DNA from: a virus
Taxonomy: Duplodnaviria > Heunggongvirae > Uroviricota > Caudoviricetes
Strand: one strand, 5' to 3'
Length of the DNA: 12,377 bases
IMG/VR virus record: IMGVR_UViG_2778261066_000005
The stretch's first letter is position 1; each line of letters starts with the position of its first letter. Of this stretch, positions 1,910-12,303 are shown piece after piece. The position numbers were made by a program, and so were the translations under genes. The notes under the pieces are model-generated. The model was not told where the DNA came from and ran no database searches. It saw nothing but the letters and a program-made list of their open reading frames with translations.

Positions 1910-2131
1910 ATGGACCCCGAACAGGGGGAGTGCTATTTATCTGGAAGGATTCTGTTGATGAAAATCGAAGAATTACGTGAAATTTTTAGTGAAGATGGCC
2001 TCTATGCTGTGCGCGTTGAGAATGGGGGTATTACCTACACAGCGTTAATTCCTGATGATCATGTAGTGTTATCTGTTGAGGCATTCATTGAATACTTGGA
2101 AAGACTCGGTTTCAAGGTAGTTCGGGAATAA
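1910..2131 (+). CDS. Small hypothetical protein, 73 aa (alternative start ATG 1958 gives 57 aa)
   Basis: ORF preceded by AGGGAG 7 nt upstream of ATG 1910; internal ATG 1958 has GGAAGGA upstream. No family recognised. Confidence 0.45.
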   Translation: MDPEQGECYLSGRILLMKIEELREIFSEDGLYAVRVENGGITYTALIPDDHVVLSVEAFIEYLERLGFKVVRE

Positions 2132-2190
2132 GTTATAATACGTGAGCCAGCCTGAACAACTGGCAACCTGCAGCGCCATTGGAGATGACA

Positions 2191-2463
2191 ATGGCGCATA
2201 ATTTCAAATTTCGCAATTCTGATTCTGCCTTTGCCAGCAGGCACGGGTGGCGTTCTCACGCATTCAAATATGACTGGTATCAGCACGATCCCTGTACTGA
2301 AGAACAGGCCGAATGGCTGATTCATAACTACCGCAGACGTGGATATGAGTTTAGGAAAGCCCTCACCCTCGATTATCGTCACTGGATAATCTACGTCAGA
2401 CTCCCTTATTCCGAACGCCCACCGCGTCCGTCCCGCACATTCCAGCAACGCATCTGGAGGTAA
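2191..2463 (+). CDS. Small hypothetical protein, about 90 aa
   Basis: ATG 2191 lies 6 nt after GGAG (2181-2184); the ORF track's longer version begins at TTG 2179. The stop TAA 2461-2463 abuts the GTG 2465 start of the next gene. Confidence 0.5.
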   Translation: MAHNFKFRNSDSAFASRHGWRSHAFKYDWYQHDPCTEEQAEWLIHNYRRRGYEFRKALTLDYRHWIIYVRLPYSERPPRPSRTFQQRIWR

Positions 2464-2464
2464 C

Positions 2465-3511
2465 GTGCGGGTATTACTTCGACCTGTTCTGGTACCGGAA
2501 CTCGGGCTGGTGATCGTTAAGCCGGGCCGTGAATCCATGCCGGTATTCCACAATACCCGGGTACTGGTGGAGCCGGAACCGAAAAGCATGCGTAATCTGC
2601 CGTCCGGGGTCGTTCCTGCCGTTCGCCAGCCGCTGGCGGAGGATAAATCATTACTGCCATTTTTCAGCGACGAACGAGTGATTCGTGCTGCTGGTGGCGC
2701 TGGCGCATTGTCTGATTGGTTACTGCGCCATGTTAAATCCTGCCAGTGGCCACACGGCGATTATCACCACAGTGAAACCGTCATTCACCGTTATGGTACC
2801 GGCGCAATGGTGTTGTGCTGGCACTGCGACAACCAGCTGCGCGACCAGACCTCCGAATCACTCGGGCAACTTGCTCACCAAAACCTGTCTGCATGGATGA
2901 TTGACGTCATACGCCATGCAATGAATGGCTCGCAGGAACGGGAATTATCGCTGGCTGAATTATCCTGGTGGGCGGTCCGCAATCAGGTGGCGGACGCGCT
3001 ACCGGAAGCGGTATTACGTCGTTCGCTGGGGTTGCGTGCGGAAAAAATCCGCTCAATGTACCGTGAAAGCGACATCGTACCGGGAGAGCAGACCGCCACC
3101 AGCATACTGAAGCAGCGCACAAAAAATCTTGCGCCGCTGCCTCACGTCCACCAGCAAAACCCGCCACAGGAAGAGACGGTGGTCAGCATTGCCGTTGATC
3201 CTGAGTCTCCGGAATCTTTCATGAAACGACCTAAACGTCGCCGCTGGGTTAACGAGAAATACACACGCTGGGTGAAGACACAGCCGTGTGCGTGTTGTGG
3301 TAAGCCAGCCGACGATCCCCATCACCTGATTGGTCATGGTCAGGGCGGAATGGGGACAAAATCTCACGATATTTTCACGCTACCGCTGTGTCGGGAGCAT
3401 CACAACGAGCTTCATGCGGATCCTCTGGCGTTCGAAGAAAAGCATGGTTCTCAGGTTGATTTAATTTTTCGTTTTCTTGATCACGCCTTTGCAACTGGCG
3501 TGCTTGGGTAA
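2465..3511 (+). CDS. YdfU-like DUF968 protein with C-terminal HNH-like Cys/His motif, 348 aa
   Basis: GTG-initiated 348-aa ORF; the size and the position upstream of rusA and Q match the ydfU slot of Qin-type lambdoid prophages (recalled from memory). C-terminus CACCGKPADDPHHLIGHGQGG...CREHHNELH resembles an HNH zinc-finger nuclease motif. Confidence 0.65.
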   Translation: MRVLLRPVLVPELGLVIVKPGRESMPVFHNTRVLVEPEPKSMRNLPSGVVPAVRQPLAEDKSLLPFFSDERVIRAAGGAGALSDWLLRHVKSCQWPHGDYHHSETVIHRYGTGAMVLCWHCDNQLRDQTSESLGQLAHQNLSAWMIDVIRHAMNGSQERELSLAELSWWAVRNQVADALPEAVLRRSLGLRAEKIRSMYRESDIVPGEQTATSILKQRTKNLAPLPHVHQQNPPQEETVVSIAVDPESPESFMKRPKRRRWVNEKYTRWVKTQPCACCGKPADDPHHLIGHGQGGMGTKSHDIFTLPLCREHHNELHADPLAFEEKHGSQVDLIFRFLDHAFATGVLG

Positions 3512-3523
3512 AAGAGGTGACTG

Positions 3524-3898
3524 ATGCTCATAGATTTGGTTTTACCTTACCCGCCGACGGTGAACACTTACTGGCGTCGTCGTGGCAGCACATATTTTGT
3601 ATCAAAAGCCGGGGAGCGTTATCGCCGGGCAGTGGCGCTTATTGTTCGCCAGCAGCGGCTGAAATTAAGCCTGTCCGGAAGGTTGGCAATAAAAATTATT
3701 GCAGAACCACCGGATAAGCGCCGCCGTGACCTGGACAATATTCTGAAAGCGCCGCTGGATGCGCTGACGCATGTGGGGTTGCTAATGGACGATGAGCAGT
3801 TTGATGAAATCAATATCGTTCGTGCTCAGCCAGTATCTGGTGGACGTCTGGGGGTGAAGATTTACCCCATAATGCTTGAAGGGCAGGTCAAAAAATGA
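3524..3898 (+). CDS. rusA: Holliday-junction resolvase RusA (crossover junction endodeoxyribonuclease)
   Basis: 124-aa protein with the RusA signature ...TYWRRRG...PDKRRRDLDNILKAPLDAL...; Shine-Dalgarno AAGAGGTGA at 3512-3520; its stop overlaps the next start as ATGA at 3895-3898. Confidence 0.9.
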   Translation: MLIDLVLPYPPTVNTYWRRRGSTYFVSKAGERYRRAVALIVRQQRLKLSLSGRLAIKIIAEPPDKRRRDLDNILKAPLDALTHVGLLMDDEQFDEINIVRAQPVSGGRLGVKIYPIMLEGQVKK

Positions 3899-4716
3899 AA
3901 CTGGAAGATTTACCGAAATACCACTCCCCAAAATCCCCCGGCCTGACTGATGCATCGGCCTCAACGTCGAAAGATGCGCTGAGTATCACTGATGTGATGG
4001 CCGCGCAGGGCATGACACAGAATCGGGCTGAGATGGGGTTTTCTGCGTTCCTTGGGAAAATGGGCATTAGTATGAATGACAGAGAGCGGGCAACAGAATT
4101 GCTGACAGAATATGCACTCAGTCGGTGTGATCGCGTGGCGGCGTTAAGAAAACTCCCGGCAGAAATAAAACCGGCAGTGATGCGTATTATGGCTTCGTAT
4201 GCGTTTGAAGATTATGCCCGCAGCGCGGCGAGCAAAAAACAGTGCTCCTGCTGTCACGGAAAAAAATTTATTGAAAGCGAGGTTTTTACAAACAAGATCC
4301 AGTATCCGGATGGTAAGCCGCCGGTATGGGCAAAGTGTACGAAAGGTGTGTATCCGTCTTACTGGGAAGAATGGAAAAAAGTCAGGGAGGTGGTAAAAGT
4401 TGCCTGTCCGGAGTGTGGCGGAAAGGGTGAGGTTTCCACCGCCTGTAAGGATTGCCGTGGGCGTGGTGTCGCCATTCATCGTGAAGAGTCGGTAAAACGT
4501 GGTATGCCTGTTATCAGAGACTGCCAGCGTTGTGGTGGTCGTGGCTGTGAAAGACTACCATCAACGGAGGCATTTAATGCCATATGCAAAGTGACGAGTG
4601 CTATCACGCTTGATACGTGGAAAAAATCAGTGAAACGCTTTTACGATACGTTGGTGGTTCGGTTTGACATTGAAGAGGCATGGGCGGAGCGGCAGTTAAA
4701 GAGGGTAACGCGATAG
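3895..4716 (+). CDS. Q-like late-gene antiterminator (QuuQ-type), 273 aa, with four CxxC motifs
   Basis: Sits immediately after rusA and immediately before a pR'-like promoter and tR'-like terminator, which is the canonical place for Q. Four CxxC pairs (CSCCHG, CPECGG, CKDCRG, CQRCGG) indicate zinc-ribbon repeats. The family call rests on context and recalled similarity. Confidence 0.65.
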   Translation: MKLEDLPKYHSPKSPGLTDASASTSKDALSITDVMAAQGMTQNRAEMGFSAFLGKMGISMNDRERATELLTEYALSRCDRVAALRKLPAEIKPAVMRIMASYAFEDYARSAASKKQCSCCHGKKFIESEVFTNKIQYPDGKPPVWAKCTKGVYPSYWEEWKKVREVVKVACPECGGKGEVSTACKDCRGRGVAIHREESVKRGMPVIRDCQRCGGRGCERLPSTEAFNAICKVTSAITLDTWKKSVKRFYDTLVVRFDIEEAWAERQLKRVTR

Positions 4717-4721
4717 TGTTG

Positions 4722-4749
4722 TTGATTTTTCCCGAATCTGTGGTAAATT
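4722..4749 (+). promoter_or_regulatory. Late promoter pR'-like (sigma70)
   Basis: -35 TTGATT (4722-4727), 16-nt spacer, TG at 4741-4742 and -10 TAAATT (4744-4749); TAAATT is the same -10 hexamer as lambda pR'. It starts 6 nt after the Q stop. Confidence 0.6.
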
Positions 4750-4795
4750 TGCTCTAACGATGGGCGTTTTATGCCTGACGTTAGAAGATTTTTTA

Positions 4796-4821
4796 CACCC
4801 CGCCGCCTGGCGGGTTTTTTA
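4796..4821 (+). terminator. tR'-like intrinsic terminator
   Basis: Stem CCCGCC (4799-4804), loop GCCT, stem GGCGGG (4809-4814), then TTTTTT (4815-4820), about 65 nt downstream of the candidate promoter. Confidence 0.7.
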
Positions 4822-4942
4822 TGACTGAAATCGCGTCAGTATAGTAAACGCGCTGGTGGCGGTGAATACCTGTCTTTCAGCTTGCTGGCTTTTTCGACAA
4901 GAGTTATTGGTGTGTCACGTTAACCGGAAAAGGGAAAAAGAC

Positions 4943-5140
4943 ATGCTAAAACAGCAGGATATGACAGAAACCGCCAGAGTGGTGTTTAATGAATTAAGCG
5001 TTACCGAACCGGCGACAGTCGGGGAGATAGCGCAGAATACTTACCTTTCACGCGAACGCTGCCAGTTAATACTGACCCAGCTGGTTATGGCGGATCTGGC
5101 AGACTATCAGTTCGGTTGTTACAGACGCCTTCCGCAGTGA
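4943..5140 (+). CDS. Small putative HTH / winged-helix DNA-binding protein, 65 aa
   Basis: ATG 4943 (the ORF track's longer version starts at GTG 4856). The segment VGEIAQNTYLSRERCQLILTQL looks like a helix-turn-helix. The stop is embedded in a terminator hairpin. Confidence 0.45.
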   Translation: MLKQQDMTETARVVFNELSVTEPATVGEIAQNTYLSRERCQLILTQLVMADLADYQFGCYRRLPQ

Positions 5141-5150
5141 AGGCTTTTTT
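5127..5150 (+). terminator. Intrinsic terminator overlapping the stop of the small HTH ORF
   Basis: Stem GCCTTC (5127-5132), loop CGCAGT, stem GAAGGC (5139-5144), then TTTTTT (5145-5150). Confidence 0.6.
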
Positions 5151-5167
5151 ATTTGTGGTAAATGGGC

Positions 5168-5198
5168 GGCTGGTGGGTGTTAGGGGCACCCACCAGCC
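5168..5198 (+). other. 12-bp perfect inverted repeat carrying a Chi octamer on each arm
   Basis: GGCTGGTGGGTG (5168-5179), 7-nt loop, CACCCACCAGCC (5187-5198). GCTGGTGG is at 5169-5176 and its complement at 5190-5197. No U-tract follows. Confidence 0.6.
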
Positions 5199-5290
5199 AT
5201 CTGCTCATGCGTTGGGTTCACAAGCAAACCTCAGGCCCACTGCTTTGCGCAAAAGCAGAATGAGCCTATCAGAGACAGGCTTAATGATCC

Positions 5291-6340
5291 ATGCTTAATA
5301 CTGTAAAAATATCCAGTTGTGAGTTAATCAACGCCGACTGCCTGGAATTTATCCGGTCGTTACCCGAAAATTCTGTTGACCTGATAGTCACGGACCCGCC
5401 GTACTTTAAAGTGAAGCCTGAGGGCTGGGATAACCAGTGGAAGGGCGACGATGATTACCTGAAGTGGCTGGACCAGTGTCTGGCGCAGTTCTGGCGGGTG
5501 CTGAAACCTGCCGGAAGTCTTTACCTGTTCTGTGGTCATCGCCTGGCATCTGATATCGAAATCATGATGCGTGAACGCTTCAGTGTGCTGAACCATATTA
5601 TCTGGGCGAAGCCGTCCGGACGCTGGAACGGATGCAACAAGGAAAGCCTGCGGGCGTATTTCCCCGCCACAGAGCGCATTCTGTTCGCGGAACATTATCA
5701 GGGGCCGTATCGTCCGAAAGATGCCGGGTATGCGGCGAAGGGCAGTGCACTGAAACAGCATGTGATGGCCCCGCTGATTTCTTACTTTCGTGATGCGCGC
5801 GCGGCCCTGGGGATAACGGCAAAACAGATTGCAGATGCCACAGGAAAGAAAAACATGGTGTCGCACTGGTTCAGTGCCAGTCAGTGGCAGCTACCGAACG
5901 AAAGCGATTATCTGAAATTACAGTCGCTGTTTGCCCGGGTGGCAGAAGAGAAACATCAGCGCGGTGAACTGGAAAAGCCCCACCACCAGCTGGTGGATAC
6001 GTATACGTCACTGAACCGGCAGTATGTGGAGCTGCAGAGTGAATATAAGCATCTGCGGCGGTATTTTGGTGTGACGGCGCAGGTGCCGTACACGGATGTG
6101 TGGACACATAAACCGGTGCAGTTCTATCCCGGGAAACATCCGTGCGAAAAACCGGCAGAAATGCTGCAGCAGATAATCAGCGCAAGCAGTCGTCCGGGTG
6201 ACCTGGTTGCAGATTTTTTTATGGGCTCAGGTTCAACGGTAAAAGCGGCACTGGCGCTCGGGCGTCGTGCGATTGGCGTTGAGCTGGAGACCGGACGTTT
6301 TGAGCAGACAGTCAGGGAAGTTCAGGATTTAATCGTTTGA
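5291..6340 (+). CDS. Orphan beta-class amino-DNA methyltransferase (N6-adenine or N4-cytosine), 349 aa
   Basis: Motif IV DPPY at nt 5393-5404 (SVDLIVTDPPYF) near the N-terminus and motif I FxGxG (DLVADFFMGSGST) near the C-terminus, the beta-class order. No adjacent restriction endonuclease gene. Confidence 0.85.
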   Translation: MLNTVKISSCELINADCLEFIRSLPENSVDLIVTDPPYFKVKPEGWDNQWKGDDDYLKWLDQCLAQFWRVLKPAGSLYLFCGHRLASDIEIMMRERFSVLNHIIWAKPSGRWNGCNKESLRAYFPATERILFAEHYQGPYRPKDAGYAAKGSALKQHVMAPLISYFRDARAALGITAKQIADATGKKNMVSHWFSASQWQLPNESDYLKLQSLFARVAEEKHQRGELEKPHHQLVDTYTSLNRQYVELQSEYKHLRRYFGVTAQVPYTDVWTHKPVQFYPGKHPCEKPAEMLQQIISASSRPGDLVADFFMGSGSTVKAALALGRRAIGVELETGRFEQTVREVQDLIV

Positions 6341-6389
6341 AACGGATGAGATTGCAGAATTAATTACGCACCATTATTATTCTGCTCCC

Positions 6390-6465
6390 GGCCCTTTAGC
6401 TCAGTGGTGAGAGCGAGCGACTCATAATCGCCAGGTCGCTGGTTCAAATCCAGCAAGGGCCACCA
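6390..6465 (+). tRNA. ileZ: tRNA-Ile2 (anticodon CAU; ileX/ileZ-like), 76 nt with encoded CCA
   Basis: Hand-folded cloverleaf: acceptor GGCCCTT/AAGGGCC, D-arm GCTC-AGTGGTGA-GAGC, anticodon CAT at 6423-6425, T-loop TTCAAAT, discriminator A plus CCA. Closely resembles E. coli tRNA-Ile2 from memory; an elongator tRNA-Met cannot be excluded by eye. Confidence 0.8.
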
Positions 6466-6474
6466 TATCACATA

Positions 6475-6551
6475 CCACCATTAGCTCATCGGGATAGAGC
6501 GCCAGCCTTCGAAGCTGGTTGCGCGGGGTTCGAGTTCTCGATGGCGGTCCA
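6475..6551 (+). tRNA. tRNA-Arg (anticodon UCG), 77 nt, with non-canonical pairs
   Basis: Acceptor CCACCAT/ATGGCGG (one A-C mismatch), D-arm GCTC...GAGC, anticodon loop CTTCGAA (TCG at 6509-6511), T-loop TTCGAGT, CCA at 6549-6551. The T-stem contains two G-U pairs, so it may be partly degenerate. Confidence 0.6.
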
Positions 6552-6565
6552 TTTATCGGTATTCT

Positions 6566-6609
6566 GCGTTGTTAGCTCAGCCGGACAGAGCAATTGCCTT
6601 CTAAGCAGC
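6566..6609 (+). pseudogene. Truncated tRNA-Arg (UCU): 5' half only
   Basis: GCGTTGT-TA-GCTC-AGCCGGACA-GAGC-A-ATTGC-CTTCTAA-GCAGC gives acceptor 5' strand, D-arm and anticodon arm (TCT at 6600-6602). No T-arm and no ACAACGC acceptor 3' strand follow; a GT-rich tract follows instead. Confidence 0.5.
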
Positions 6610-6807
6610 TGTGGTTGCACTCCTGTTGTTTCTGGTGGTGATGGTGGACTTCAGCAGCCGGATAATGTCGGTGCTGTCTGATGGTGTTTTGGTGGCGGGT
6701 GTGTGGTTGTTGCTTTCCCGTTGCTGAAAAAGAAAGCATCAGGCGATTAGCAGGGTATCAGTTACACGTTGAAATTTTTAAATACCTCACAATTCCACAG
6801 CTTGATG

Positions 6808-7005
6808 ATTGTCTGGCTGCCGGAGAATTTGTTAAAAATTACATCGCATGGTGAATCCCCCTCAGCGGCGGGGCATCTGGCAAAGTGTATGATCCAGAGA
6901 ACATGCAAATTCAGTAGACAGGCTGAATTTACCGGGAGGCCCCTGGCACCATGCGACAGACAGAAATTAGGCTATACTTCAGCCCCTCTCCGGAGGGGCT
7001 TTTCT
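6808..7005 (+). repeat. Structured non-coding element, copy 1 (about 198 bp), terminator-capped
   Basis: Paralogous to 7277-7470. Shared blocks: ATTGTCTGGC, TTTGTTAAAAA, TCGCATGGTGAATCCCCCT, GAATT(T/C)ACCGGGAGGC(C/A)CC(T/C)GGCACCATGC, and terminal palindrome AGCCCCTC-TCCG-GAGGGGCT plus T-run. Confidence 0.7.
6981..7005 (+). terminator. Intrinsic terminator ending element copy 1
   Basis: 8-bp GC-rich stem AGCCCCTC/GAGGGGCT with TCCG loop, followed by TTTTCT. Confidence 0.65.
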
Positions 7006-7194
7006 GTGCAGGATGTGTCACAGTTTCCTGAATTCTGAGTACTGTCCTGTTACTCAGGGTGCTATATTTTCTGACGTGATGAAAGTCTGCCGGAAGGCGG
7101 AACGTATCGGAAATGACCCAGTAGAGAAAACGTTGACTCAGATACCGATGCTGAGTTACCGGGAAACCGGCATCACATGACCGCTATCCTTCCA

Positions 7195-7217
7195 GGCTCG
7201 CTCCGGCGGGCCTTTTT
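7195..7217 (+). terminator. Intrinsic terminator of the unit between the two copies
   Basis: Stem GGCTCGC / GCGGGCC (one G-U pair), loop TCCG (the same loop as the flanking terminators), then TTTTT (7213-7217). Confidence 0.55.
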
Positions 7218-7276
7218 ACTGCAGAAAACAGTTTTCCCGTAAAATGCCACGTTGCTCATAATTCAGGCTGGCGATT

Positions 7277-7470
7277 ATTGTCTGGCCGGCGGGAAGTTTG
7301 TTAAAAAATTTCGCATGGTGAATCCCCCTGTGCGGAGGGGTAATCAGCGAGTAGGTATATGGGATAATCGCGGATTCAGGTGCTGGTACTGAATTCACCG
7401 GGAGGCACCCGGCACCATGCAATGGCACATAGCGCCACTCTCCAGCCCCTCTCCGGAGGGGCTGTTTATA
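7277..7470 (+). repeat. Structured non-coding element, copy 2 (about 194 bp), terminator-capped
   Basis: Paralogous to 6808-7005; the 19-nt block TCGCATGGTGAATCCCCCT is identical (7311-7329 versus 6844-6862); the same terminal palindrome sits at 7444-7463. Confidence 0.7.
7444..7470 (+). terminator. Intrinsic terminator ending element copy 2 (weak U-tract)
   Basis: AGCCCCTC-TCCG-GAGGGGCT followed by GTTTATATTG. Confidence 0.5.
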
Positions 7471-7498
7471 TTGATTTTGTCAGATGTGAGTAAACTCC

Positions 7499-7834
7499 TT
7501 ATGGACTTTGTTGTTTTAGCCCATAAGGACATATTTGCAGAGTGCAACGGTTATTAAAGCATTCATTCAATACGTTATCTGTATTTGTAGGGCATTCCTG
7601 GCTGTTTTTGATTAAATTCCAGAATGTTTTATTGAATGGTACTACGTTGTAAATGGTTACAGGTAGCACTTTGTTATTGAGCATGATGCCTGTGTGAGTC
7701 AGTGTAAATATACTTTCAGGAGGTAAGAAAGCATCCGATTGATACCAGATTATTAATTTTATTTTACTCCATATGACTGAAAAAGATATTCCGCATGATG
7801 GCTGGATAACTGTATCAATCACAATCCACTTCAT
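7499..7834 (-). CDS. Hypothetical protein, 111 aa, in an AT-rich island; the only candidate gene on the minus strand
   Basis: ORF with AAGGAAA about 6 nt upstream of its ATG on the minus strand. Base composition is much more AT-rich than the flanking phage genes. No motif recognised; it could be spurious. Confidence 0.3.
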
Positions 7835-8079
7835 TTAGTTTCCTTGTTTATGCCTTGCTGGTGATGTTCTGAAAAGTATAAATGATATTTTTGATTGTAA
7901 ACCATAGAGCAGAATTATTTTTCTGATGTTGTTTATTGTTTATTTAAATGCAGGGTGGTTTATATCTCGTCTTGTAGTTTATCCATGCATATCTGCTTGA
8001 TGATGAGGTTTTTATTTAAGGTATGGTTTTGTGTTTTTTCTGTATTACATGTCAGGTATTTTAAAGAATCATTTTTCAG

Positions 8080-9951
8080 ATGGTGGAAAGAACCATGGCA
8101 TTTAAACACTATGATGTTGTCAGGGCGGCGTCGCCGTCAGATCTTGCGGAAAAGCTGACACATAAACTGAAAGAGGGCTGGCAGCCGTTTGGTAGTCCGG
8201 TGGCCATAACCCCTTATACCCTGATGCAGGCGATTGCAGCAGAAGGTGATGTGGTCGTCAGTGGTGCAACTGAGCCGGAGTGGTACTACGTCATCGTACT
8301 GGCCGGGCAATCCAATGCCATGGCTTACGGTGAAGGGCTTCCGCTTCCGGATTCATACGATGCGCCCCATCCGCGCATTAAGCAACTGGCCCGGCGTAAC
8401 ACAGTGACTCCCGGTGGTGAAGTATGCGTATTTAACGACATCATTCCTGCTGACCATTGTCTGCATGATGTTCAGGATATGAGTACGATTAATCATCCCC
8501 GGGCTGACCTGAGCAAAGGGCAGTACGGCTGTGTCGGACAGGGCTTACATATTGCCAAAAAACTGCTTCCGTATATCCCTAATAACGCGGGGATCCTGCT
8601 GGTACCATGCTGTCGTGGTGGTTCGGCATTCACCCAGGGCACGGAGGGGACATTCAGCGAGTCCACGGGGGCCAGTCAGGATTCGGCTCGCTGGGGAGTG
8701 GGTAAGCCGTTATATCAGGATCTGCTTTTCCGCACGAAGGCAGCATTGCAGAAAAATCCGAAAAACGTTTTGCTGGCGATATGCTGGATGCAGGGGGAAT
8801 TCGATATGACGAATGCCAGTTACGCCCAGCAGCCAGCAGCATTTCTTGCAATGGTACAGCAGTTCCGTGCTGACCTTGCCGGGCTGGCGGCGCAGTGTCA
8901 CGGTGGAAGTCCGGCATCAGTCCCCTGGATTTGTGGCGACACGACATACGCGTGGAAACAAGAACACGGTACGCAATATGAAGTGGTATATGGTGCATAT
9001 AAAGGTAAAGAATCCCAGCAGATTTATTTTGTTCCCTTTATGACCGATGGTAGCGGAGTTAATACACCGACAAACAACCCGTCAGAAGATCCTGATATTG
9101 CCGGGTCTGGTTATTACGGTTCGGCATCCCGAACGAACAAAAACTGGGTATCATCAAATCGCCCGACGCATTTCAGCTCATGGGCGCGTCGTGGCATTAT
9201 TCCCGATCGTATGGCAACTGCTATTCTGAACGTAGCCGGTCGCACCTTAGCCTTCATTAGTGGTAAGGCACCGGAAATCAAACCCTCGCCCGGCGGCGAC
9301 ACTCCATCGGGGCCGTCTGATGGTGACACATCCGTTCGTACAGTCTCCCTGCTGCCGACAGCCGGAGAGGCTGCTGCGCAGGGCTGGACCATCACCGGCG
9401 GCAGTGTTGCGCTGGAAGATGGTGTGTTTAAGGTTACCAAGCAGAGCAATAAAACTTGGTCCCTGATGCATCCGGTGGATGACGCAGTCTCCCTGCTGAC
9501 ACGGGGTGGCAGACTGAGCTGTAAGTTTCGACTGTCAGGCGCACTGACCAACAACCAGTTCGGTCTGGGAATTTATCTGTATACCGATGTAGCGTTACCT
9601 GACGTCGTGGCGATGACCGGGACTGGTAACCCGTTCCTGATGTCGTTCTTCACCCAGACCACAGACGGCAAACTGAATCTGATGCATCACAGGAAAGCAG
9701 GAAACACAAAGTTGGGCGAGTTCGGGAATTACAGTAACGACTGGCAGACGCTGGAGCTGGTGTTCACCGCCGGCAGTGCCACGGTTACTCCGAAACTGAA
9801 TGGAGTGGCTGGCCCGGCATTCCAGGTCATAAAAGACAGTCTGACACTGGGGCTGAATGCGCTGACGCTGACGGATATTACCAAAAATGCAGCGTATGGC
9901 GTTGAGATAGAAAGTCTGGTGCTGGAGATAAATGCACCAGCATCATCATAA
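8080..9951 (+). CDS. nanS-p: NanS-p-like prophage sialate O-acetylesterase (DUF1737 N-terminus plus SASA/SGNH esterase domain), 623 aa
   Basis: VIVLAGQSNAMAYGEG carries the GQSN motif of the sialate O-acetylesterase family. The size and the position between the tRNA cluster and the lysis cassette match the nanS-p genes of Stx phages (recalled). Alternative start ATG 8095 has a better-spaced GGTGGAAAG upstream. Confidence 0.8.
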   Translation: MVERTMAFKHYDVVRAASPSDLAEKLTHKLKEGWQPFGSPVAITPYTLMQAIAAEGDVVVSGATEPEWYYVIVLAGQSNAMAYGEGLPLPDSYDAPHPRIKQLARRNTVTPGGEVCVFNDIIPADHCLHDVQDMSTINHPRADLSKGQYGCVGQGLHIAKKLLPYIPNNAGILLVPCCRGGSAFTQGTEGTFSESTGASQDSARWGVGKPLYQDLLFRTKAALQKNPKNVLLAICWMQGEFDMTNASYAQQPAAFLAMVQQFRADLAGLAAQCHGGSPASVPWICGDTTYAWKQEHGTQYEVVYGAYKGKESQQIYFVPFMTDGSGVNTPTNNPSEDPDIAGSGYYGSASRTNKNWVSSNRPTHFSSWARRGIIPDRMATAILNVAGRTLAFISGKAPEIKPSPGGDTPSGPSDGDTSVRTVSLLPTAGEAAAQGWTITGGSVALEDGVFKVTKQSNKTWSLMHPVDDAVSLLTRGGRLSCKFRLSGALTNNQFGLGIYLYTDVALPDVVAMTGTGNPFLMSFFTQTTDGKLNLMHHRKAGNTKLGEFGNYSNDWQTLELVFTAGSATVTPKLNGVAGPAFQVIKDSLTLGLNALTLTDITKNAAYGVEIESLVLEINAPASS

Positions 9952-10035
9952 AAAGTGAGCCAGTCAAATGGAAGGTATCGTTAAACTCACCGGTAGTGTC
10001 AGTGGGTCGTCTGAGATGCCTGCATGAGTTATCAG

Positions 10036-10067
10036 AGCCATCAGTACTTAACTGGTGGCTTTTTTTA
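10036..10067 (+). terminator. Intrinsic terminator between nanS-p and the lysis cassette
   Basis: Stem AGCCATCAG (10036-10044) / CTGGTGGCT (10052-10060) with one G-U pair, loop TACTTAA, then TTTTTTT (10061-10067). Confidence 0.6.
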
Positions 10068-10101
10068 TTGTTGTCAGCTTCCGGATAACGGGAGACGGGG
10101 T

Positions 10102-10317
10102 ATGTACCAGATGGAAAAAATCACAACAGGTGTGTCATACACCACGTCAGCGGTGGGAACGGGCTACTGGTTCCTGCAGTTGCTGGACAGGGTTTCCCCG
10201 TCTCAGTGGGCGGCAATAGGCGTGCTGGGGAGTCTGCTGTTTGGGCTGCTGACATATCTGACTAACCTGTATTTCAAAATCAGAGAGGACCGTCGTAAGG
10301 CTGCACGGGGAGAGTAA
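10102..10317 (+). CDS. S: Phage-21-type class II holin (pinholin S21-like), 71 aa, dual-start motif
   Basis: [28 protein letters not shown]...[36 protein letters not shown] matches S21 as recalled in length and near-identical C-terminus. Two hydrophobic segments; Met1 and Met4 give the S71/S68 antiholin/holin arrangement; GGAG lies 7 nt upstream. The ORF track's 10024 start adds an unsupported 26-aa extension. Confidence 0.85.
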
Positions 10318-10321
10318 TTCA

Positions 10322-10636
10322 ATGACTCAAAACTATGAACTGATTGTGAAAGGGATCCGCAATTTTGAGAATAAAGTTACGGTAACTTTAGCGTTACGGG
10401 ACAAAAAACGCTTTGACGGTGAAATTTTTGACCTGGACATCTCGCTGGACCGTGTTGAAGGTGCCGCGCTGGAGTTTTATGAGGCAGCAGCCAGAAGGAG
10501 CATCAGACAGGTCTTCATGGATGTTGCTGCCGGGTTATGTGAAGGGGACGAGCTGTTGCCAGAAACGCGCCCCTGTTCAGAGGCGCGGTATACCATAAAA
10601 ATTAACAGTTCTGATAACTCGATTACGGGTTGTTAG
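10322..10636 (+). CDS. DUF826 / YdfR-like small protein encoded between holin and endolysin, 104 aa
   Basis: ATG 10322 lies 4 nt after the holin stop, with GGGGAGAG 8 nt upstream. N-terminus MTQNYELIVKGIRNFENKVTV and the position between holin and lysozyme match Qin YdfR-type proteins (recalled). Confidence 0.6.
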   Translation: MTQNYELIVKGIRNFENKVTVTLALRDKKRFDGEIFDLDISLDRVEGAALEFYEAAARRSIRQVFMDVAAGLCEGDELLPETRPCSEARYTIKINSSDNSITGC

Positions 10637-10691
10637 CTTTTTGCAGTTGGCTTTCCAGTATCTTTCATTGGTAGCATCCTGATAAATATCC

Positions 10692-11225
10692 ATGAGCGCA
10701 AAAATCAAATACGGCCTGTCAGCTGCTGTTCTGGCGCTGATTGCTGCAGGCGCGTCTGCTCCTCAAATACTTGACCAGTTTCTGGATGAAAAAGAGGGTA
10801 ACCACACTACGGCATACCGCGATGGTTCCGGTATATGGACCATCTGTCGTGGTGCCACAATGGTGGATGGTAAGCCCGTCATACCGGGAATGAAGCTGTC
10901 GAAGGAAAAATGCGACCAGGTTAACGCTATTGAACGTGATAAGGCGCTGGCATGGGTGGAGCGCAATATTAAAGTACCACTGACCGAACCACAGAAAGCG
11001 GGTATAGCGTCATTCTGTCCCTATAACATTGGCCCCGGTAAGTGTTTCCCGTCGACGTTTTATAAGCGGCTGAATGCCGGTGATCGTAAGGGCGCATGCG
11101 AGGCGATTCGCTGGTGGATAAAAGATGGTGGGCGCGATTGCCGCATACGTTCAAATAACTGCTATGGACAGGTTATTCGTCGTGACCAGGAAAGCGCATT
11201 AGCCTGTTGGGGGATAGATCAGTGA
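10692..11225 (+). CDS. R: SAR endolysin (GH24 T4-type lysozyme with N-terminal signal-anchor-release domain), 177 aa
   Basis: Gly/Ala-rich weakly hydrophobic N-terminus ([16 protein letters not shown]) followed by the catalytic E...D...T pattern (EKEG...[15 protein letters not shown]), as in the R21 and P1 Lyz family. Confidence 0.9.
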
Positions 11226-11680
11226 GCAGAGTCGCAGCGATTATTTATACTCTGGTTATCTGCACCATCGTCTGCCTGTCATGGGCTGTTAATCATTACC
11301 GCGATAACGCCATTACCTACAAAGCCCAGCGCGACAAAAATGCCAGAGAACTGAAGCTGGCGAACGTGGTAATTACTGACATGCAGATGCGTCAGCGTGA
11401 TGTAGCAGAACTCGACGCCAGATACACAAAGGAGCTTGCTGATGCTAACGCGACTATCGAAAGTCTTCGTGCTGATGTTTCTGCTGGGCGTAAGCGCCTG
11501 CAAGTCGCCGCCACCTGTGCAAAGTCAACGACCGGAGCCAGCAGCATGGGCGATGGAGAAAGCCCAAGACTTACAGCAGATGCTGAACTCAATTATTACC
11601 GTCTCCGAAGTGGAATCGACAAGATAACCGCTCAGGTCAACTACCTGCAGGAGTACATCAGGACGCAGTGCTTAAAATAA
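11222..11680 (+). CDS. Rz: i-spanin Rz, 152 aa
   Basis: GTG 11222 overlaps the R stop (GTGA). Protein (M)[46 protein letters not shown]... is near-identical to lambda Rz as recalled; N-terminal transmembrane segment plus coiled-coil periplasmic domain. Confidence 0.9.
11442..11627 (+). CDS. Rz1: o-spanin Rz1, lipoprotein encoded in the +1 frame inside Rz, 61 aa
   Basis: ATG 11442 with AAAGGAG 7 nt upstream; signal peptide [19 protein letters not shown] followed by the lipobox Cys (VSAC), then a Pro-rich mature region ([12 protein letters not shown]); lies wholly within Rz. Confidence 0.8.
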
Positions 11681-12096: not shown

Positions 12097-12303
12097 ATGA
12101 AAGATCAAGATGTTAGGTTCGCGGTGCATCATAAGCTTTTGAAAGAATCGCATTTAGATCCAGACTGCCTTGTGGTCGATGAATTTTCCATATCCCTTGG
12201 CGCCAGTAGAGCAGACATTGCTGTAATAAATGGTGTTATACACGGGTACGAGCTCAAAAGTGAATATGACTCTTTGGAGCGTTTGCCTCTTCAAATCAAG
12301 TGA
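12097..12303 (+). CDS. Hypothetical protein with PD-(D/E)xK-like motif, 68 aa as read; probably an N-terminal fragment or frameshifted
   Basis: Very strong Shine-Dalgarno GGAGGGAGTAAGGAGAAG directly upstream of ATG 12097. D-x-E and E-x-K spacing (VVDEF ... GYELKSE) resembles a restriction-endonuclease-like fold. The stop is TGA 12301-12303, but the -1 frame stays open to the window end. Confidence 0.5.
   Translation: MKDQDVRFAVHHKLLKESHLDPDCLVVDEFSISLGASRADIAVINGVIHGYELKSEYDSLERLPLQIK

Follow-up and report, generated by a model that had tools for sequence, protein, structure and literature searches.

Tandem STnc100/EcOnc27/PasD-family small RNA cassettes and iraL between the tRNA genes and nanS-p of a probable stx-negative Escherichia coli prophage late region

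The viral record IMGVR_UViG_2778261066_000005 (IMG/VR; Caudoviricetes) comprises 12,377 nucleotides (nt), here called the window, and its interval between a tRNA cluster and a nanS-p-type esterase gene is the subject of this analysis. The gene order was taken from the RefSeq annotation of an identical chromosomal copy together with Pfam and NCBIfam scans (Table 1). Downstream of a late antiterminator gene (Q) and a DNA methyltransferase gene, the interval contains two tRNA genes, the stump of a third, a remnant of a DUF3927 gene, three tandem promoter-small RNA (sRNA)-terminator cassettes of ∼235 bp each belonging to the STnc100/EcOnc27/PasD family, and, on the opposite strand, iraL; the esterase gene and a lysis cassette follow. 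A reading of the letters alone (below, the sequence-only reading) had described a frame like that of Shiga toxin (Stx) phages, with a Q-like gene, tRNAs, a NanS-p-like esterase, and S21-type lysis genes, and all of these elements were recovered at or near where it had placed them. The interpretation advanced here has three parts, taken as a whole with a probability of about 0.85. The window represents the late region, with the early-late junction, of a stx-negative Escherichia coli lambdoid prophage; its backbone is the type used by a subset of Stx2a phages, with a quuQ-type Q, a methylase, ileZ-argN-argO, nanS-p, and a P21-type lysis cassette; and, as is usual in this backbone, the interval from the tRNAs to nanS-p serves as a moron slot, here filled with self-contained units expressed in the lysogen.

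Table 1. Features of the window (positions are those of the 12,377-nt stretch)
Feature	Position	Strand	Basis or remarks
DUF968/ydfU, rusA	upstream of Q		RefSeq/Pfam order; inside the block collinear with Stx2_EH1910
Late antiterminator Q, 273 aa, quuQ type	3895..4716	+	Pfam PF03589 (Antiterm), 167 bits; RefSeq "antitermination protein"
Candidate late promoter pR' (TTGATT-N16-TGgTAAATT, ∼4723-4752) and tR' hairpin (4799-4814 plus T7 run)	4723..4820	+	directly after Q
Small open reading frame (ORF)	between Q and DNA methyltransferase		RefSeq/Pfam order
DNA methyltransferase	5291..6340	+	PF01555, 152 bits
tRNA, CAU anticodon, ileZ type (RefSeq tRNA-Ile)	6390..6465	+	ARAGORN; Rfam 72.5 bits; identical to 933W ileZ
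tRNA-Arg (UCG), argN type	6475..6551	+	ARAGORN; Rfam 44.9 bits
argO remnant, first 42 nt of tRNA-Arg (UCU)	6566..6607	+	identical to Stx2_EH1910 argO up to 6607, unrelated after
DUF3927 mini-ORF remnant, 38 aa, GTG start	6611..6727	+	PF13064, 42.6 bits (cutoff 25); match limited to 11-39 of the 53 profile positions
sRNA cassette 1: promoter box TTGTCT-N18-TAAAAA, STnc100-family sRNA ∼6846-7006, terminator 6981-7000	6787..7006	+	Rfam RF02076
sRNA cassette 2: extended -10 TGcTATATT, divergent STnc100/PasD-like sRNA ∼7074-7218, terminator 7194-7213	7014..7218	+	
sRNA cassette 3: promoter box, STnc100-family sRNA ∼7313-7469, terminator 7443-7464	7255..7469	+	Rfam RF02076
iraL (IraM-family RssB anti-adaptor), 111 aa	7499..7834	-	NCBIfam NF007393
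AT-rich intergenic region between divergent genes (promoter side of iraL, upstream side of nanS-p)	7835..8094	.	GC ∼0.32
NanS-p-type SASA carbohydrate esterase	8095..9951	+	ORF 8080-9951, start 8095 from RefSeq; DUF1737 + SASA + DUF6645
Lysis cassette: class II (P21-type) holin 10102-10317, YdfR 10322-10636, lysozyme 10692-11225, Rz 11222-11680	10102..11680	+	PF04971, PF07041, PF00959, PF03245 and RefSeq

The closest Stx phages are of the Stx2a type with an 822-bp quuQ-type Q gene, such as Stx2_EH1910 (LC567834), and not 933W. A lack of synteny with the Stx-phage late region had been set beforehand as the finding that would refute the proposed frame, and this was not borne out: window positions 3194 to 6607 align to Stx2_EH1910 positions 1995 to 5408 with 94.2% identity over 3416 aligned bases, well above what chance would give, from ydfU through argN in the shared order ydfU-rusA-quuQ-hypothetical-methylase-ileZ-argN. 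The Q gene, named quuQ in Stx2_EH1910, lies within this collinear block, and the methyltransferase gene holds an equivalent position in Stx2_EH1910, in the UTI89 prophage, and in an E. coli genome with an identical slot. The alignment resumes between window positions 7297 to 9228 and Stx2_EH1910 positions 6861 to 8772, through the iraM-family gene and nanS-p. The point of resumption lies inside the last structured repeat of the window and corresponds to a site 87 nt past the stx2B stop codon of Stx2_EH1910. Thus, 689 bp (6608-7296) stand in place of the 1452 bp that comprise the rest of argO and stx2AB. Stx2_EH1910, annotated with three tRNAs, stx2A, stx2B, iraM on the minus strand, and yjhS, has one STnc100 sRNA, the iraM-family gene, and nanS-p at positions equivalent to those in the window but carries an intact argO and stx2AB, whereas the window shows the argO stump, the DUF3927 remnant, and two additional sRNA cassettes. 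The collinear elements of an Stx-phage-type late backbone (Q, ileZ-argN-argO, cargo, nanS-p, and S-R-Rz) are all represented, argO only as a 42-nt stump. Alignment to 933W, proposed earlier as a check, gave homology only from 6239 on, shortly before the tRNAs; 933W has a Q gene and a late promoter of an unrelated type.

No toxin gene was found in the slot, as had been noted before. No ORF of at least 50 aa in 6552-8158 matches a Pfam family except DUF3927, and searches of the whole window for stx remnants by tblastn (Stx2A and Stx2B) and blastn (933W stx cassette) gave a best E value of 0.6. The segment from 6300 to 8200 is 100% identical to several complete E. coli chromosomes, and at least 80% of it recurs in 1008 of the 5426 complete E. 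coli genomes, about a fifth. In the phage vB_EcoS-640R1, the 689-bp segment is 99.9% identical.

The earlier suggestion to look for the structured units at the same slot in other prophages was borne out, with the trio in UTI89 and a single STnc100 copy in CFT073, 933W, and Stx2_EH1910. The prophage of UTI89 (NC_007946, 1.40 Mb) shares the backbone with 96.6% identity up to 6607 and contains the same array of STnc100, divergent middle unit, and STnc100. There, the array directly follows an intact argO, which marks the trio as a conserved array and not a local accident; unlike the window, UTI89 carries neither the DUF3927 fragment nor iraL, and its nanS-p is truncated. The potB-island prophage of CFT073 (Hryckowian et al. 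2014, PMC4045071) agrees with the window in the Q type, the tRNA cluster, and the P21-type lysis genes, and the two share 97% identity over cassette 3, iraL, and the beginning of nanS-p. Its order is an intact argO, DUF3927, one STnc100, iraL on the minus strand, and a truncated nanS-p; it differs from the window in the intact argO, ∼500 bp of unrelated sequence, a DUF3927 ORF of 43 aa, the single STnc100 cassette, an IS200 element after Q, and the truncation of nanS-p. Prophage PP2 of E2348/69, an enteropathogenic E. coli (EPEC) strain (PMC8550237; bioRxiv 10.64898/2026.05.13.724894), likewise shows a DUF3927 ORF, an STnc100-related sRNA, and a SASA esterase, but with a single PasD2, no tRNAs, and PasA between the esterase and the holin.

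The left boundary of the exchanged segment lies within argO. The truncated tRNA of the sequence-only reading consists of the first 42 nt of this gene and breaks off within the anticodon stem, in its 3' strand; neither ARAGORN nor Rfam called a tRNA at 6566-6607. Homology ends at 6607 against four prophages with an intact argO (Stx2_EH1910, 933W, UTI89, and CFT073), and from 6608 on, the sequence is homologous to the DUF3927 gene. What had been described as GT-rich DNA is present and is a decayed coding remnant, the DUF3927 ORF. Alignment to the full-length copies of PPyecE, E2348/69, and CFT073 shows a 1-nt deletion that alters the C terminus. The native start was lost at the argO junction, and the first nine codons found in the PPyecE and E2348/69 copies are missing. 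In PPyecE and CFT073, the DUF3927 gene lies just upstream of an STnc100 sRNA, and in E2348/69, it lies just upstream of PasD2. A probe spanning the argO'::DUF3927' junction matched 327 of the 5426 genomes with a coverage of at least 80%; further genomes match only over the argO half or only over the DUF3927 half. The earlier idea of a relic of cargo exchange agrees with this stump fused to a truncated and frameshifted gene. Judging from these alignments, the fusion is a scar left when illegitimate recombination introduced a DUF3927-STnc100 module from a different lineage of prophages. The neighboring argN differs from the copies of 933W and Stx2_EH1910 by a G3-to-A change, leading to an A3.C70 mismatch in the acceptor stem, and, in the T stem, by a C-to-T change; Rfam gives it 44.9 bits, compared to 54.8 bits in those two phages. 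These changes may represent early decay of the tRNA.

The structured repeats reported by the sequence-only reading belong to the STnc100 family and number three, not two. Cassettes 1 and 3 score 138 bits (6816-7009) and 132.5 bits (7285-7473) against RF02076, with a gathering score of 47 bits, and both matches span the full-length model (1-206). With 30 bits and an E value of 3e-4, the middle unit (7045-7220) stays under this threshold; it is not a curated STnc100 member but a divergent relative, one comparable to PasD2, which scores 41 bits to STnc100 in the same kind of Rfam scan. The mapped 5' end of PasD2, based on RNA sequencing and Northern blots (NC_011601, position 741157), corresponds to the G in the conserved GCATGGTG. 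A TAAAAA -10 element precedes this G by 7 nt and has TTGNCT upstream at an 18-nt spacing, a geometry shared by cassettes 1 and 3, and the putative 5' ends of the sRNAs were placed by this comparison. A generic sigma-70 scan found 5 promoter-like sites compared to 4.6 in shuffled sequence, which is no excess; the promoters were therefore assigned by homology to the mapped start of PasD2. Terminator-like sites were found 13 times, compared to 3.9 expected, and every unit has an intrinsic terminator at its 3' end.

The family alignment of ten members contains 33 consensus pairs, 13 of them with compensatory changes. Three pairs of the closing stem are changed on both sides only in the middle paralogs (G-C to A-U, A-U to G-C, and G-C to A-U). 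Folded singly, the middle unit and cassette 3 both show the closing stem, internal hairpins, a single-stranded linker of ∼17 to 25 nt, and the terminator, with z-scores of -2.6 and -3.2, respectively. Variation in the alignment is greatest in the linker, which is also the site of the PasD seed (UGUGAG); this coincidence suggests distinct target specificities for the paralogs. Copies of the middle unit are present in 673 of the 5426 genomes (∼12%) in two sequence types ∼14% apart, with ∼86% conservation between the copies of the window and UTI89, and in both arrays examined (window and UTI89), the unit is flanked by two canonical copies. Cassette 3 shares 97% identity with its CFT073 counterpart and corresponds in position to the STnc100 sRNA downstream of stx2B in Stx2_EH1910.

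Two further observations concern these cassettes. The terminator after argO (CCAGGCTCGCTTTTGCGGGCCTTTTT; 933W 4383-4408 and Stx2_EH1910 5454-5479) matches that of the middle unit (window 7192-7217) at 23 of 26 nt, with the differences limited to the loop, which hints that the middle cassette has a common ancestry with the segment upstream of stx. At 7303-7428, RefSeq lists a minus-strand pseudogene, partial and labeled "hypothetical protein," that exactly overlies cassette 3, and does likewise in CFT073 and UTI89; this pseudo-ORF is most likely an annotation artifact over an sRNA gene.

The sRNA family is known from several pathogenic E. coli lineages. EcOnc27/sRNA103, an STnc100-family member, is an Hfq-binding sRNA encoded ∼75 nt downstream of stx2B (PMC12711010, PMC12370729, and PMC7873438), a position confirmed here by Rfam matches of 207.7 bits in 933W and 153.8 bits in Stx2_EH1910. 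STnc100 is related to the EPEC sRNAs PasD1 and PasD2, and PasD lies upstream of a sialate esterase (bioRxiv 10.64898/2026.05.13.724894). EcOnc27/sRNA103 has been seen by Northern blotting and by Hfq cross-linking and analysis of cDNA (CRAC), and PasD has been seen by Northern blotting and by the ligation and sequencing of interacting RNAs (RIL-seq); these homologous sRNAs are abundant and Hfq bound, with many RIL-seq or CRAC partners (PMC8550237 and PMC7873438). With AsxR, EcOnc27/sRNA103 forms an Hfq-binding dyad 3' of stx2AB, and at least 8 Sakai prophages carry sRNA dyads in the stretch from the late promoter to the lysis genes (PMC7873438). The STnc100 sRNA downstream of stx2B shows that this family is resident in the frame and does not substitute for the toxin, as a view of the sRNA in the place of the toxin would have it; only the extra copies are additional. 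A role of the cassettes as Hfq-type trans-acting sRNAs is suggested by the homologues EcOnc27/sRNA103 and PasD. By analogy to these, the three sRNAs, with a common scaffold and differing stretches before the terminator, would base pair with different mRNAs and probably act on different mRNA sets.

A mainly cis-acting function of the structured repeats, as a terminator stack that in the lysogen insulates nanS-p and the lysis genes against the constitutive promoter of the tRNAs or as processing sites of the late transcript, is unlikely, yet it fares best among the alternatives. Three strong terminators stand in series between the tRNA promoter and nanS-p, the lysis genes need silence in the lysogen, and the terminator after argO in 933W and Stx2_EH1910 is nearly identical to that of the middle unit. 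Each unit, however, contains an upstream promoter-like element placed as at the mapped PasD2 start, and a scaffold of ∼110 nt, unneeded for a plain terminator, is kept before each terminator with compensatory changes. The many partners of the abundant, Hfq-bound homologues also speak for action in trans (PMC8550237 and PMC7873438). The two roles are not mutually exclusive, and insulation is plausible as a secondary effect of trans-acting sRNA cassettes.

The AT-rich island, with a GC content of 0.32 to 0.36 over 7500-8100 compared to ∼0.5 on both flanks, had been recognized by the sequence-only reading, which missed the minus-strand gene it holds. Against NF007393 (cutoff of 121), the product of this gene scores 162 bits, its residues 1-110 aligning with positions 1-113 of the 114 in the profile. 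It shares 100% identity with protein WP_000871291.1 from the potB island of CFT073. Identity to K-12 IraM is 62%, and identity to the product of the gene annotated as iraM in Stx2_EH1910 is 73%. On the strength of these identities, the iraM-family gene of the window is IraL. The CFT073 protein has been shown experimentally to bind RssB and to stabilize RpoS in logarithmic phase (PMC4045071). In the window, iraL would be transcribed convergently to the sRNAs, and its product would bind RssB and protect sigma-S from ClpXP. The iraL transcription start site has been mapped in CFT073 (PMC4045071). An alignment seeking a shared upstream region of iraL and K-12 iraM, such as a PhoP-dependent promoter, revealed no meaningful conservation, in agreement with the different regulation reported for iraL and iraM (PMC4045071). 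The slot cargo had been proposed to be non-toxin, possibly RNA, and this holds for the three STnc100-family sRNAs; the protein-coding iraL means that it is not RNA only.

Where iraL lies, on the minus strand of the segment that separates the STnc100 terminator from nanS-p, 933W carries the anti-sRNA AsxR (88 bits) and PPyecE_EH1910 carries AgvB (96.5 bits). In the window, no minus-strand Rfam match to AsxR or AgvB (RF02703 and RF02702) was found in 6300-8200 at E values up to 1; the minus-strand dyad partner is the protein gene iraL instead of an anti-sRNA. The arrangement otherwise resembles the dyads EcOnc27-AsxR and EcOnc06-AgvB of enterohemorrhagic E. coli (EHEC) (Tree et al. 2014, reviewed in PMC7873438), with a plus-strand STnc100-family sRNA immediately upstream of nanS-p and a convergent, lysogen-expressed minus-strand element abutting the sRNA terminator. 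In contrast to the EHEC dyads, the plus-strand sRNA is present in three copies, and the partner encodes an anti-adaptor.

Descent from an Stx-converting prophage that lost its toxin by deletion, leaving deletion debris in the slot, is improbable. The 94% identity of the backbone to an Stx2a phage, the left breakpoint within argO immediately upstream of the expected stx2A start, and the decayed DUF3927 fragment would be consistent with such a loss. However, 689 bp of unrelated sequence replace 1452 bp, which is no simple deletion, and no stx remnant is seen at the protein or DNA level. The replacement has intact homologues in stx-negative prophages, namely, the UTI89 trio after an intact argO and the DUF3927 gene with a family sRNA in PPyecE, CFT073, and E2348/69. 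The junction is fixed in the 327 genomes and the wider layout in the 1008, and the comparisons carry no direction, loss or gain of stx. Least probable of all is that the slot holds decaying, nonfunctional prophage DNA (pseudogenes and dead sRNA copies) kept by hitchhiking, for which the truncated argO, the truncated and frameshifted DUF3927, the argN acceptor-stem mismatch, and the RefSeq pseudo-ORF over cassette 3 could be cited, since IraL is intact and identical to a protein of demonstrated function (PMC4045071), all three sRNA units keep promoter, scaffold, and terminator, the middle unit is conserved between two lineages ∼14% apart, and the same segment is present in phage genome records.

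In the preferred reading of a moron slot with self-contained units, the slot would work autonomously in the lysogen, with the tRNAs, three sRNAs each with a promoter and a terminator, and iraL with its own promoter. The region upstream of the tRNAs is 91% identical to the 933W stretch with the annotated promoter pT. Upon induction, Q-modified RNA polymerase starting from pR' would pass tR' and all tRNA and sRNA terminators, leading to expression of nanS-p and the lysis genes; the read-through of the downstream terminators is deduced from analogy to other lambdoid phages. The candidate pR' scores 8 of 12 and was not flagged by the promoter scan. From pR' and tR', a short leader RNA of ∼60 nt is expected, analogous to the lambda 6S RNA or StxS.

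Several points weigh against this reading. Passage of three extra terminators by the Q protein of the window is an assumption from lambdoid biology, and the argN mismatch indicates that some decay of the region is under way. The targets of STnc100/EcOnc27 are poorly defined, with only effects on fimZ and espA upon overexpression (PMC7873438 and PMC12711010). The middle paralog falls short of the Rfam gathering score (30 versus 47 bits) and has a weak -35 element. The seed position is extrapolated from PasD, and expression of the window's own sRNA copies is predicted from their sequence.

The esterase gene downstream of the slot encodes a protein with an N-terminal DUF1737 (58.9 bits), a SASA domain (48.1 bits), and DUF6645 (69.4 bits) and lies upstream of the holin gene, as is characteristic of NanS-p; it is a predicted esterase with 84% identity to the esterase of E2348/69 PP2 and 83% identity to that of PPyecE. 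No Rfam match to a PasA/PasC-type sRNA was found between nanS-p and the holin (9952-10101). This spacer measures ∼150 bp and contains no PasA homologue, compared to the 438-bp interval of E2348/69 with PasA on the minus strand.

The outer parts of the window vary. Its left end (1-2147) shows no homology to the genome with the identical slot, although the late regions are 99% identical, which indicates a prophage mosaic upstream of ydfU. A 368-aa ORF at 694-1800 contains helix-turn-helix and ImmA/IrrE peptidase domains. On the right, the genome with the identical slot carries genes for an "sce7726 family protein" and a "beta family protein" downstream of Rz, between the lysis genes and the terminase, and homology to the window stops at 12300, within the "sce7726 family protein" gene. 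The segment 11700-12377 looks like a second variable cargo site.

A more far-reaching proposal concerns the middle unit and is tentative, at somewhat less than even odds. The unit (∼7074-7218) would be expressed, with an extended -10 promoter and a seed of its own, and would form a third, as yet unnamed branch of the STnc100/PasD scaffold family, and the trio would be a seed-diversified array at the stx position in prophages of the extraintestinal pathogenic E. coli (ExPEC) type, which, together with iraL, rewires posttranscriptional and RpoS control of the host in lysogens. A possible match was considered in sRNA-17 of the neonatal meningitis E. coli (NMEC) strain RS218, which was reported to have no Rfam homologue and to lie in an mEp460-like prophage (PMC7719688). 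This lead was dropped; the mEp460 genome shows no tRNA/sRNA slot, and its methylase gene is followed directly by the holin gene.

The locus is correctly assigned but ordinary. Its layout is widespread and already annotated, and the backbone, the sRNA family, the dyad arrangement, and IraL together with its genomic surroundings have been published or annotated. Three points were not found described, namely, the three-cassette array with a divergent middle paralog below the Rfam threshold, the exact argO'::DUF3927' junction, and iraL in the position of the anti-sRNA. For annotation, the lessons are that the iraM-family gene at this site is IraL, that the "hypothetical" pseudo-ORF at 7303-7428 overlies an sRNA, and that a divergent STnc100/PasD paralog escapes the Rfam threshold; beyond such tidier annotation, the relevance is small. 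For the biology of these prophages, the locus illustrates that lambdoid late operons use the stx position as a general moron slot, with lysogen-expressed regulators as alternative occupants, comprising Hfq-binding sRNAs, anti-sRNAs, and an RssB anti-adaptor. Several of the occupants converge on RpoS, with StxS of the Stx phages activating rpoS translation (PMC7873438) and IraL stabilizing the protein.

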